A stretch of 64,000 nucleotides of DNA from positions 620,001-684,000 of the forward strand of contig OZ287084.1 of assembly GCA_965645245.1 (NCBI GenBank). Direction: 5' to 3'. The position numbers were made by a program, and so were the translations under genes. The number at the start of each line of letters is the position of its first letter. Positions within the stretch are counted from its first letter, which is position 1. The stretch is from Massalongia carnosa. Taxonomy: Eukaryota. A model generated the notes under the pieces. That model was not told the origin of the DNA, did no database searches, and saw only the letters and a list, made by a program, of their open reading frames with translations. Shown piece by piece: positions 52,495 to 58,900 of this stretch.

Positions 52495-54697
52495 CTATCG
52501 CCGCGCGCGTTGGGGGACTGGATTTCGAGCTCGGTTCAAAGGCCGAGCGTCTCTTTCGAAGGTGTTGGCTACAATAGGCCCGCTCACGCTCCCTTCACGA
52601 CCCAATTTTCGGCGCTTCAGGCTGTCTATATCCTCGCCACGGCTTGCAGGACGAGATTGATGCTCTGGATCATCCTCTTCACGCAAACGCTTGTTGGACG
52701 AGGCTGTACCATTGACATGCAATGGCGCGTAACTGGCTGGCAAAGGCCCTGACGCATAGGTATCAGTTGCTGAAGTTCCGTTGGAAACGCTGGCACGAGT
52801 ATCGCTTATTGAGTTGTATTGATTGCTCGACGGTGGGGCGCGGGGTGGGGTGTGGTATCCAGGCGTCCACTGGCTTTGTCCCCCTGTGGCGGTGCGGGGA
52901 GTTGCTCTGCCGGATCCATTTTGATGTGATGGGGATCCATTCATCTCAGGGGAAAGGTGAGGATGTTCCCCTTGCAATGATCCAAGGTTGGGAGCGGAAT
53001 TGTAGTTGGCATATGAGCCACGACTGGCACTGTAAGCAGTATTGCTGTCGTGTGGATATTCCGAATCATGTTCATGCTCCGCTTCTTCGTCACCTGCTCC
53101 GTGACCCACAGGGTCAGACGCTGGCCCATGGGCATAAGCTTCTGGCTTGTGATCACCATGCTCAATTTCTGGTCCCGATCCAGGCGCACGTGACGATGGA
53201 GGACCCATCTCATGTTTCAAATATTGGTTTGGTACTACGGGTCCACTGAGCCGCCCCATTCCCTGTGGCTGGACACCTTGTTGAGGCGCATATTGGGCCT
53301 GTTGCGTTGTAGCTGACGAGTACATTGGTCTCGAGCTGTCATAGGGTTGCTGGCTGGGGTATGGTTGCATGCTTTGCATGGCAGGACCCGGGGGTGTGGT
53401 TGCAGGTGTGTTCGGTGTGGAGTGGGCATGAGTATCGATTGCAAGAGGTTGTGTGCTTTGGACCCCGCCACCGATGTTCTGACCCCAAGTATCATACGAG
53501 CTTCCTTGGCTGTTCATACCAACACCGCTCGAGGCACTGGTGGGGGGGGTGGGGAAGGTATGTGCCCTGTCGAGGGTCGGTCTGGCTCCAGGGTGAGGCG
53601 CAATAGAATGAGGTGGTTGAGAGACGTGAGAGCCAACGGGCGTAGTCATCGAGTGATGATGGTGAAGCGACGGAGTCTGCGAGCCAGGACCTATCATCCC
53701 TTGCTGCTGCTGCTTGTTATCAAATTTACGACGTTCGGCCGCTGCCATGACAGCATTCGTCCGGTTTGAATTCGTGGGGTGATAGAGCAGCGCGCCGATG
53801 TTGTGCACAAACAGCGGATATAAAAGTTCCGTTATTTTCTCCTTATTTGCAAAGTCCAGCGCCCGATCAAAGGGTATCCTGACATAGAGTTAACGCCTGC
53901 ATCATCAATTATCCGTCAATTACATGCTTGCTTACCAAACCCCTTTAAGATGCATAGGACCTATTTTCACAACATGACGCAGCTTTTCGCTTTTCAATAT
54001 ACCATCCCGACGTCCTCTTGTCATCCCTGCAACATTAAGAAGTTTTGTGCCATTGATCATATGATTATCTGTCATTAAGTTAGTGATTAATCATTCCCCG
54101 TAAATGGGATGAGGCGAAGACTAATGGGCTAAATGAAAGTTCATGCCAAAGCTTACCATCTCGTCTTGCAACACATACACCCTTCGCCTCAACCTGAAAG
54201 CACATGCTCCCTTCATCTTCCCATAATGTGGCGGTTACTCGAGGTTTCATCCCCGGAGGAGCTATCTGACCGGTTGTGTCGTAGTTCTGTTGTGGATAAC
54301 CAGCTGCTGGACCTCCGGGTCCACCCATATAAGTGTGTTGTGGTTGCCCGCCCGGAGGCATTGCTTTCATCAGAAGATGTCAGTTCAATGTTCGGCAAAA
54401 TCATCTGGACTTGAAAGTACCTGGAAGGGGCAGCAGGCCAGAATTCATCTGGGGTCCCATGGACGAAGAAACAGGTTGTCCGCCGCCTTGCGGGGAGGTT
54501 ACGCCATTGGTATAAGCATACGGACCATACGTACTTGGCGATGGTGCATAACTGCCAGGTCCGGGTTGCAAGACGGAAGGTTGTTGTTGATAATGAGGAT
54601 AATGAGACATGCTACCAGCGGTGGTAGGTTGGGGCGCGTAAGACTGCGCAGCCGACATATGTGGCTGATGCGAGTCAATGTATTGTGGTTGGTTCAT
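52495..54697 (-). CDS. stuA: APSES transcription factor StuA/Asm-1, ~666 aa from the first AUG; exons 54697-54421, 54363-54157, 54068-53936, 53878-52495; frame stays open upstream to 55231
   Basis: [59 protein letters not shown]...[52 protein letters not shown] and [10 protein letters not shown]. Confidence 0.96.
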
Positions 54698-55231
54698 CGT
54701 ATTGCTGTATGGCTCAGCAATCGGAGCGTACTGGGAGATGCTCGAAGTTTGATGAGAATAGTCGGTGTGCTCCGTGGGTTCGTCCGGCAAACCTTGTGCC
54801 TGAGAGACTATAGTTTGGGAGGTGGGAGAGGGCGAAGGGGTTCTTAACCCAATTCCGGTTTGGGTATTGGAGTAAGAGGATGAGCTGGTCTGCGAGGATG
54901 GATACTGGTTACCAGGAGCGCTAGGGCTTGCCTCTATTATTCCGGCTCTTGATGAATTTGGGCCGTAGGAGGCGCTTGCAGCGTAAGATTGTGGTAAGGG
55001 CAGATTCGGGAGCCGATCACCAGAAAATAACGGTCGCTGAGAATAATGAGGATTGAACCAGGGAACGTCAATAGGACCTCGGGTGTGAACCTGGGAGATC
55101 GAAGGGAGCTCCAGCTTTTCGGTATTGGCGAGAACTGGCCTTGAGTGACCTGAACGAGAGAGGGCGCGAGAAAACACCAAATTTGACACAGGACTCTGAT
55201 TCTGCTGCTTCTCAACCAGACAAGCGGTTTC

Positions 55232-55958
55232 TCAGTCGTCCACGTTCTGCAACCGATTAATGACTGATTGCTCCGTAAACTTTGCTCGTAGCTTCAACGT
55301 GACTTTGGATCAAATGGAATCTCCACTCATGAAAATTGACTTTCAGAACCTAAGCAACACGGACTGCTAGATTCCGCCTGCCAGTAGCAACTCAAAGATC
55401 AAAAGTTCGATATGACGAGGTGTGGCGCGTGCTGGCACAGCTGGTGATTGAGCTTCGAAATGGATGTAGAGACACGTTAATCAGGCGATTGTACAAATAG
55501 TTGCCGCCGATGGTGCAACGCTTGGACTCTATAGGATTGCCGAATGCGCCGCGATGATGAAGATCGAAAAGTGCAACAGCGTGTGGCTCGTTTCCGGTCG
55601 TTAATGGGACAACTTCCAAAGCGGTTTGCTTTCGTGATGCAGGTGGATTGCAATGGATATACGCTTCTTTACAGCGCTTTGTCGGGATAGGCAAGTGTGC
55701 GAACTTCAAAGGTAATAATCGCTCAAGGGCGCGTCTATCGGGTACTGGCGTTTTTGAATGAAGAAAGATCGTGGATAGTCGTTAGTATCGTTTGCGTCTT
55801 GTTAACTTGTAGCCTTGGAGAAAACTTGGGCTCGTTAATTCTGCAGCAGATTTTTAGTCAGGCGCAAGCGGAATGCAGGTCTTCCGATAAGATAGGCAAG
55901 GTGAAGGCGAAGAATGTCGGGATGCGTACCTCGCTGCTGCTCATGGAGAAGAGGTCAT
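55232..55958 (-). promoter_or_regulatory. Putative stuA 5' leader: uORF1 (55958-55941, MTSSP*), intron 55929-55247, spliced uORF2 (55944-55930 + 55246-55232, MSSSENVDD*)
   Basis: GAG|GTACGC donor at 55929, TTAAT...TTGCAG acceptor ending at 55247, AUGA overlap of the two uORFs, and a pyrimidine-rich TSS-like tract near 56005-56055. The splice pairing is inferred. Confidence 0.5.
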
Positions 55959-58900
55959 GCAAAATGATTGCGCTCGACTTCAGTCGGAAACGCTCACTGG
56001 TGGACGAGGAGAGGGGGGGGGAGGGGGAAAGGATTTGGCAGTCGAGGAGGGAGGTTGGGCGATTTGTTGGTGATGGTGATCTGCTAGCGCGAAAACTTGG
56101 CGCGAACAGAACCGGCTTCCTGATATGATAGTGGATCTATTGGGTCTGATAGGAGATACGAGTCGGTGATAATCAATCCTTTTGCAATTTCCACTTTATC
56201 GGATGAGATGATGGAGTTGAAGCTGAAGTTGAAGATTTTTCAGATATTGATATCTGAACAGAGGCCGCCGTTCACGAAGTTGGTTTCAATTGGCCCAAAA
56301 CAACGAGCGGTGCAACGTCAATCTTCCCACCAAGTACTTTTACTGCTTTTTTGGGGTAAGTAATAAAAGATCCATACAGTGCCGTGAAAGCACAGACAGG
56401 CAGGGTCGAAGGTGACCGACAGCGCTGCAATGCGATGCGCTGCGGGAGAACGGGCCCTTTTTACATCGAATGCAGAATGCGGGACGGCGCGCCAGGTGCG
56501 CAGGGTAAGAATGGAAGGGAAAGGCAGTTAGTTGTCAATTTGACAACGATGAATAAAACGAGGTAACGAGTAAGGAGTGTCTAGACGCTTTTTAGGTTGT
56601 AGTAGAGGTTCGTCTAGAATGTGTACTCTGTACGGCCGATATGACCAGTTTACCTTTTTGACTGGGACTTTTCGCTCCACTTCTCCTTCTGTCTCTCTTA
56701 CGCTATCCTCCAACCGTTTCACTGATTCTCTAGACTATCGCTTGCTCTCTGTATCTGCCTCCCTTCGTTACTGAATTGCCATTTCATTATTAATTACGCA
56801 CTTTTTTTCTTTTGACTACGTTTCTCTATTTCGAGCGTCATGACTATGGGCGGGAAGGAAATTGTAGCTAGAAGGGCGGTGGTTTGTGTCAGGTGGAAGG
56901 CTTCGTTGACAAGCCAAGGCTTAAGCTACGGTATCTGTCTTACAAGCGTCGGCTTGCGTCTGGGCTGCAGCGGAATTGAGGTATTAGTAGGATGCAACCT
57001 GCAGGCAAGCGAAGAAACGACCCACTGTCGAATCAACTTGCAGGGACAAGCTTCTCAGGGAACCTTGTCGTCGTTCCTATAGGCGTGCAATCACGCCGTA
57101 AGAGAGCCAATCAGTCGCAGACGTTACATCAGTCCAATGGGAACGTGAGGCTGCCACCCCGGGCGCGGTTGTGGACGGTAGAAAAAAAGTTGGGTCAAGC
57201 TGATCCAAAATTCGGAAGGGTGTGTATGGGCGACTCGTGGTAGTGAAGGTTAAATTAGGGCAGTCGGACGTACAGAGTAGTAGGGGCAGAGTACGGAGAG
57301 CGGGAATTCCAAAAAATTCGATCTATACACGGGCGAAGCGAGTGTAAAAAGCTATGGGGTTTAAGATTGCCGGTGAGCATAATCGACACCAGCAATAAAT
57401 TAATCAATAACATTCTGATAGTCCCAAGACGATGGGATGCATGGAGGCACGAAAGGGTGAATAGTCCCCATGTTTCGACCGAAGCGGAAACAAAAGCAAA
57501 AGGATCATCTGTACTACTTCTGTACGGTACTTTGAACGTGGCATGAGAGGTGGAGATGGTGTTTTTGCTTTTCGTTTTTTTTCGTAACTAGTCTACAATC
57601 TGGCTGGCTAGAGAGAGTCCAGCGAGGGAAGGGACGGGACGCGATTTGAGGGCTTTCACGTTAGGATGACTCAGTCAGCGGTCATCTGAAGGAAGGGCCA
57701 TAATGATCAAATTCGTTCCCTTTCGTGATGATGATGATGCTCTTCTTCGAGAGGATAAATTTTAGCTGCTTGTCGACAAAGTTTGGATGAATTTCAATAT
57801 GAGCCCTGTTATTGCCTTAGATCTTTCAACTGACCCATTCAAAACCAGGTGTTAACGTAGTACAGTGTACTCTATTCAATACCGCCCTCGAATTCCGAGT
57901 CTCAACTCCTCGCTCCAACGCTCAACACCTAACACACCTCACGATATCTTCATATCGATTGAAACATCACTCAAGGCCGATCCCGGTTGGAACAGCCGGC
58001 CAGACTGATCGACCGCTGTCGTCGGCTGGGGCGTCGGCTGCCAAGGCTCAATTTAATTGACACGAAAAAGGGTGGCGCGGCGCTTGTACGCTGAAAAGAA
58101 AAGCCACCGATAAGGGAGTCCAGGAGCGACAACAAGTAAAGTATCAGTATCCACGCTGATGTTCGATGATGACCAAGACGATCACGATGACAAAGATTCA
58201 CCTTCAATTGCGAACAGTTGCCGTTTGGCCGTTTGGGCAAAGCGCCAACAATGCTGAGAATTTAGAGCTGTGAAACTAGAGCCGAGAGGGAAAAGCGAGT
58301 TATCGAATTGCCGCCAGTGGTGTAGAGAAGCGAGCAATGATTGGTTTCCTGGGAGCAAGGTGGATTCGATGCGTTGTTCAAACGAACCCTAGAACCCTTG
58401 AACCCTAGCAACGTTATCCTGGGTTGCGCCCTAGCACCGTCGAACCCCAGCCCTTGAAAGTCCCGGGGGACACGACGAAAACCACGGGCACAAAAAGGAA
58501 AGAAAACACGAAAACAAGAAAGAAAAGCTACAAGCGCCGCTTTTTCGGTGGAATGTTTGACTAGGTATGCTCTCTCCGGTCCAGATGTGGTCATGATTAC
58601 TCTATGTCGATATCGGATGCTGGATTGAACCCACCTGACAGAATTACCTCAAAGCTAAGACCAAAGACTGACGAGATTGCGAGTGACAGGAGCTACGTTT
58701 GGTAACGTGGCACAAGGACGTTGCATTTCGCTATTCCCCACCCCAATCATCACGACACGTCATAACCTCGTCCACTGTGCCAGGATCATGGTTTAAGGCG
58801 AGAGGCGTATGGGGAGGAGGTGATTTGGGAGGGGTTTGGAGGTGGAAGGAGGAATGATGAAGACTATCATCATCAATTTCAAGTAAGTAATCGGCGTGAT

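Follow-up and report, generated by a model that had tools for sequence, protein, structure and literature searches.

A conserved CUG codon as the putative start of a long form of StuA in filamentous ascomycetes

Comparative evidence strongly supports a long form of the transcription factor StuA that would be initiated at a conserved CUG codon, 139 codons ahead of the annotated AUG in the lichen fungus Massalongia carnosa. The codon and its nucleotide context are shared by sequences assigned to five fungal classes, the frame that it opens is under purifying selection, and we infer initiation at this codon with high confidence. StuA, a widely studied regulator, governs conidiation and sexual development as well as secondary metabolism across filamentous fungi. 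The gene analyzed here lies on the minus strand of a 64,000-nt stretch of M. carnosa DNA (GCA_965645245.1, contig OZ287084.1, positions 620,001 to 684,000; hereafter the window), and all coordinates refer to that stretch.

Once spliced, the coding sequence translates continuously across the ATLWEDE...KGVW (APSES) domain, and the named homologs of the window protein are StuA. The closest database protein (P0001, 83% identical over 242 aa), which clusters with Lobaria immixta, exceeds the Pfam cut-off for KilA-N; the single exons of the window give no KilA-N match on their own. The internal introns are 57 to 88 nt long. One sequencing run also held a second, low-depth fungal stuA, which matches the APSES exons and the CUG region (55077-55123), with the rest of the extension unmatched. 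The features of the locus are collected in Table 1.

Table 1. Features of the stuA locus in the window.
Feature	Position	Strand	Basis or remark
stuA coding region from the AUG	52495..54697	-	Introns 54420-54364, 54156-54069, 53935-53879; APSES/KilA-N domain
StuA exons, 805-codon frame	55114-54421, 54363-54157, 54068-53936, 53878-52495	-	Spliced translation
First in-frame AUG (MNQPQ), start of the 666-aa form	54695..54697	-	Residue 140 of the 805-codon frame
139-codon N-terminal extension (LELPSISQVHTRGP..., RP...D[RK]LP.L.LP, [KR][TS]P.P)	54698..55114	-	Mostly disordered (predicted)
Conserved CUG, proposed start of long StuA	55112..55114	-	72/73 scan loci; 39/39 non-redundant sequences
Conserved initiation context ACCGAAAAG (apparent "TEK")	55115..55123	-	-9, -7, -6, -3, and -2 invariant in 39/39
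5' leader exon 2, 726 nt; holds the acceptors of the earlier note and the TGA at 55234-55232	55115..55840	-	Transcripts of relatives
uORF3 MSGDSI*, weak context, not conserved	55310..55330	-	Sequence
Conserved leader block	about 55898-55580	-	Alignment with relatives
5'-leader intron, 89 nt (GTACGC ... CTGAC ... CAG)	55841..55929	-	Splice consensus and relatives
uORF2, exon-1 part (MSSSE), weak context	55930..55944	-	Ends N* at 55840-55835 after splicing
uORF1 MTSSP*, weak AUG context (T at -3)	55941..55958	-	Sequence

We scanned metagenome contigs with a pattern that begins one codon past the first Leu, so that the CTG codon itself was left free. CTG occupied this codon in 72 of the 73 loci found; the 73rd, L032, was a chance match and was removed before all counts. 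Collapsing near-duplicates gave 38 loci, which with the window make 39 non-redundant sequences. All 39 carry CTG at the first position, whereas the Leu two codons on is encoded by CTG in 7 of 39 and the other extension Leu codons are CTG in 24% of cases (88/365); these counts come from sequences that are related to one another, not independent, and from a scan that finds only genes keeping the motif and is blind to loci that have lost the extension. The best hits of the 39 fall in Leotiomycetes (14), Lecanoromycetes (9), Eurotiomycetes (8), Sordariomycetes (5), and Dothideomycetes (3), and none of the named hits belongs to yeasts, Pezizomycetes, or Orbiliomycetes.

Throughout these five classes, the context A[CA]C-G-N-[AT]-AA-[AG]-CTG-GA is shared by all 39 sequences. 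The A residues at -9, -3, and -2 are invariant, as is the G at +4, which was fixed by the search pattern, and conservation drops off before -9. Because the C at -7, a wobble position, is also invariant, conservation upstream of the CTG is at the level of nucleotides, and the apparent peptide TEK is therefore a nucleotide context rather than protein sequence. Among the 56 homologous proteins, most share the sequence from TEK|LELPSISQVHTRGP on but diverge ahead of it, and many of the underlying models are marked partial or have unrelated first segments. One such partial model from L. immixta (P0121, MCJ1271491.1) starts exactly at the Leu encoded by the CTG.

A hairpin downstream of the codon often aids non-AUG starts. 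Near this CUG, no such hairpin was found, with a mean folding z of +0.55 across the 39 sequences and no consensus structure across 36. Upstream, a small hairpin at about -36 to -22 has z < -1 in 19 of 39 sequences, with no consensus across classes. In the window, the candidate, located ~22 to 36 nt upstream of the CUG, is GGTC-ACTCAA-GGCC (55150-55137, minus strand); L011 and L053 show GACC, and similar stems are GTCCT/AGGAC in Leotiomycete-like loci and GGAC/GTCC in Dothideomycete-like loci.

Conservation of the protein begins at the CTG. From there to an MN-type AUG the frame is open for 109 to 139 codons in all 36 loci that are long enough (the remaining three of the 39, L003, L019, and L041, end before the AUG), and every length change within the extension keeps the frame. 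Values of dN/dS were 0.07 to 0.26 in 17 of 18 hand-picked pairs, the other pair being saturated. The extension has no Pfam family and no PDB match, and its predicted structure is of low confidence (mean pLDDT 52). A profile search of 1.84 billion representatives returned 52 matches, nearly all of them StuA N-terminal pieces. Pieces resembling the start of the extension also occur inside four non-StuA predictions, perhaps as captured copies or because the predictions are chimeric: P0093 and P0081, both with Met where StuA has the CUG, P0205, in which the piece is joined to an Ndt80-type domain, and P0100. The N-terminal motif presumably resembles Tup1-binding peptides, and we take [KR][TS]P.P to resemble a kinase site. 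A literature search pairing Tup1 with LPSI found nothing; docking of a Tup1-type corepressor or another coregulator by this motif is a speculative analogy.

On sequence comparison, we consider it highly probable that leaky scanning past weak upstream AUGs and initiation at the CUG would yield an 805-aa StuA, and that reading past the CUG would yield a 666-aa form. In this model, a single short intron interrupts the long leader of stuA. Most scanning ribosomes would bypass the few short uORFs, whose AUGs lie in poor context, or would reinitiate downstream of them, and would next reach the CUG in a strong, evolutionarily fixed context, 109 to 139 codons before the annotated AUG. The fraction initiating there would make long StuA (805 aa, ~86 kDa here), beginning with the ELPSISQV motif, and the remaining ribosomes would continue to the MNQ AUG, yielding the shorter form of ~71 kDa. 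A purine occupies -3 in only 10 of 63 leader uAUGs, against a base composition of 44% purine, versus 35 of 36 main AUGs; weak upstream contexts combined with a strong main context are the pattern expected for leaky scanning.

It is also possible, but unlikely, that the CUG is the only or dominant start, with the MNQ Met internal to the protein and the 666-aa form rare, in which case StuA would be misannotated everywhere. The very strong conservation of the CUG context would fit such dominance, as would the weak out-of-frame AUGs that lie between the CUG and the AUG in many loci. However, the MN-type AUG is retained in 36 of 36 loci with the purine noted above, and the 4465 extension codons ahead of it include no in-frame Met, compared with 4% Met in the next 60 codons. 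Retention of this AUG and absence of Met before it fit selection for a defined second start, and the keeping of both starts, uninterrupted by any in-frame AUG, suggests a pair of defined isoforms. As for the out-of-frame AUGs, Leotiomycete- and Sordariomycete-like loci have one or two within the extension, at fixed positions +88 and +94 from the CTG in L002, L005, L008, L009, L033, and others, and these could tune or lower the short form. We infer the two isoforms and their ratio, as well as any coupling of that ratio to the uORFs or to start-codon stringency. A broader proposal, that at least five classes of filamentous ascomycetes make two StuA proteins per mRNA, that only the CUG form carries a coregulator-docking motif, and that stringency and weak uORFs set the ratio of these functionally different isoforms of a master developmental regulator, is tentative, and we lean slightly against it as a whole.

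An earlier note on this DNA had proposed a different route to a long StuA, in which uORF2 and alternative distal 3' splice sites toggle between a short peptide, MSSSENVDD*, and an AUG-initiated long StuA, or in which a UGA is read through or edited. The required motifs and frames do exist in this genome. The AUG of uORF2 at 55944 overlaps uORF1 (55958-55941), the GTACGC donor is present at 55929, splicing from it to the CAG ending at 55247 yields MSSSENVDD*, the TGA at 55234-55232 caps the StuA frame, and the CAGs at 55205, 55202, and 55196 give open fusions of 266, 265, and 263 aa as far as the next intron. The coincidence of the uORF2 and StuA frames is not beyond chance, because 6 of the 19 [CTA]AG sites within 55420-55050 fit equally, each giving an open fusion in the uORF2 frame.

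What that proposal overlooked is a near acceptor, a CTGAC branch site followed by the CAG ending at 55841, with which the 55929 donor is most likely paired instead of with the distal sites. The resulting leader intron is near in size to the other introns of the gene, and the spliced uORF2 reads MSSSEN*. In an alignment of the window with 10 relatives, the donor followed by a near branch site and YAG recurs in 9/9 lichen-like loci that reach that far, and typical short counterparts of 79 to 127 nt were called in 14 loci, lying 815-978 to 754 nt before the CTG. Compared with the genomic loci L033 and L034, the transcript contigs L037 and L064 are missing precisely this intron, yet keep the following 745 to 762 nt; these transcript/genome pairs are Leotiomycete-like, and in the window the intron is called from the splice consensus and the relatives. 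Among the sequences searched there was no transcript of this species or of another lichen, and contigs from three sequencing runs gave no usable junction. Transcript contigs of relatives are colinear with genomic DNA across the last 525 to 762 nt before the CTG. With only this intron spliced out and the remainder of the leader retained, the TGA and the distal CAGs would be ordinary leader, and their region does not align among relatives.

Other parts of the splice switch fare no better. No CTRAY branch site was found ahead of the in-frame CAGs of the window. An exon-1 AUG that stays open through the donor is present in 5 of 14 loci and absent from 9; only 3 of the 14 combine it with an in-frame distal YAG that would permit a fusion, at differing places, and all three lack a CTRAY site before that YAG. 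Nor is there a fixed capping UGA, since the nearest in-frame stop varies from 3 to 85 codons upstream in intron-less contigs. The CTG 12 nt downstream of the stop (55219), suggested for reinitiation, differs from the conserved CTG at 55114 and falls in a segment that fails to align among relatives. By these comparisons the splice switch is not supported: its donor is conserved but paired with the near acceptor, its distal acceptors and its frame relation to the uORF are not conserved, and we regard it as very improbable; distal splicing could at most produce a rare minor isoform in this species. The expectation that a long StuA reaches beyond the annotated AUG did stand, together with a non-AUG start, which had been listed as an option.

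Transcript contigs bear on a further alternative, an upstream coding exon spliced to AAG|CTG or a nearby AG, so that the extension would be AUG initiated, as the models P0033, P0034, and P0053 assume. An AG directly precedes the CTG in 33 of 39 sequences, and several database models join an exon here. Nevertheless, the other six have AAA rather than AAG, and the upstream parts of the models are dissimilar to one another. Twelve contigs lack the APSES-domain intron, and all 12 keep the upstream context joined to the CTG; not all are proven mRNAs, as several lack a genomic counterpart and L052 is intron-less only in part. No in-frame AUG follows the last stop in any of the 12 (L007 ends before a stop) or in any of the 39 loci. 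One of them, L008, is an mRNA copy of L068: between -525 and +831 the two are 99.7% identical apart from two introns that L008 lacks, and its in-frame stop lies 8 codons ahead of the CTG. For L009 and L025 this distance is 3 codons, and L009 has no ATG in the 560 nt before the CTG. These close stops, and the absence of ATG from L009, leave no room there for an upstream exon, for readthrough, or for a frameshift from a uORF, and we find an upstream coding exon, which the comparison of L008 with L068 already contradicts, hardly credible.

Just as hard to credit is an untranslated role for the conserved stretch, as an element of RNA or DNA. A degree of synonymous bias in codons shortly behind the CTG (CCG in 30/39 and TCG in 34/39) would suit it, but third positions vary freely downstream, the low dN/dS extends across the whole extension, the frame is never broken, and there is neither a consensus fold nor an Rfam match. 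Least likely of all, to the point of being negligible, is a +1 ribosomal frameshift at uORF1 (CCA-UGA) that enters the StuA frame once the donor has been joined to the CAG at 55150. The window has frames that would allow it, but of 10 aligned relatives 4 lack the AG at 55151-55150, the donor pairs with 55841, and L009 lacks an upstream ATG in 560 nt; in addition, an antizyme-like frameshift would call for a conserved first ORF, and uORF1 is not conserved.

The leader itself is variable in its short reading frames. Among the 39 sequences, uORFs differ in number, place, and frame, and 15 have no ATG in the leader available before the CTG (up to 600 nt), 6 of them over the full 600 nt. Five of 14 loci have an exon-1 uAUG no more than 150 nt from the donor, the uORFs differing in length and frame, and in L001 a single 9-codon uORF spans the same leader intron. 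A uORF of 7 to 9 codons starting with MH or MY, in weak context at about -300 to -330 from the CTG, recurs in Leotiomycete-like loci and was seen in L008, L019, L025, L033, L037, L047, and L064. On the sense strand of the leader in the 39 non-redundant loci, TAACGA is enriched (38 observed versus 3.6 expected), as is ACGA (238 versus 101), with no enrichment of TCGT or CGTT; these are candidate sites for RNA-binding proteins. Nothing within 54600-57200 matched Rfam. Conserved ACGCG and TCGCGC boxes lie at 55740-55729 and 56106-56083 (minus strand) and resemble what we take to be the consensus of MCB/StuA response elements, which would fit autoregulation of stuA. Farther upstream, a block at 56505-56421 (minus strand) that is 87 to 89% identical in lichen relatives is a probable promoter or transcription start region.

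If the CUG start is real, then current stuA gene models, many of them partial or fitted with unrelated first exons, are incomplete, and the most conserved N-terminal motif of StuA has been overlooked. Tagged or complementing constructs may then miss an isoform, as those built from the annotated AUG would express the short form only. An APSES factor would join the short list of fungal transcription factors that have conserved non-AUG starts, and the two-isoform reading would offer a mechanism behind the translational control of stuA that was described in the 1990s, turning that question into a one-codon experiment.

Wu and Miller are said to have found in 1997 that the alpha and beta transcripts of stuA give the same protein. 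In Aspergillus nidulans, stuA alpha and beta have a large 5' UTR with a small uORF linked to translational control (PMC3730340), and the exon-1 uORFs described here may be its counterpart. The part of that account on which we draw makes no mention of a non-AUG start or an extended protein. Across the main texts covered by our literature search, with primary stuA papers and supplements outside its scope, there was no report of a StuA started at CUG or another non-AUG codon.

Near-cognate starts are known in Cryptococcus (PMC7049704). Mammalian C/EBP offers a likeness in principle, as long and short isoforms arise from one mRNA by leaky scanning and a uORF (PMC5487733); it belongs to an unrelated protein family, and differing activities of StuA isoforms would be hypothetical. 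Nearer is IDI-4 of Podospora anserina, a Pezizomycotina transcription factor for which a CUG has been proposed as the start and is conserved in Neurospora crassa (PMC5487733). IDI-4 is a bZIP protein in which the CUG is proposed to replace the AUG, whereas stuA keeps a conserved downstream AUG.

The closest known case is cpc-1 of N. crassa, the CPC1 of Pezizomycotina, which has a near-cognate-initiated N-terminal extension (PMC5487733); the main text of that paper mentions neither stuA nor asm-1. Both genes encode fungal transcription factors, have long uORF-bearing leaders and conserved non-AUG codons with A at -3 and G at +4, and carry extensions that are under purifying selection and appear in annotations with the start unresolved (PMC5487733). 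They differ in that cpc-1 encodes a bZIP protein and has three conserved near-cognates (ACG in 98/100, AUU in 74, and CUG in 77) that bypass an inhibitory uORF2 (PMC5487733), whereas stuA encodes an APSES protein and has one CUG, downstream of short uORFs that are not conserved; among the 39 sequences, we found no conserved inhibitory uORF that this CUG would bypass. In the features that define the cpc-1 extension otherwise, namely, a conserved near-cognate codon in favorable context, an open frame under purifying selection, and no upstream in-frame AUG, stuA agrees, and its extension, unlike that of cpc-1, starts with a strongly conserved motif.
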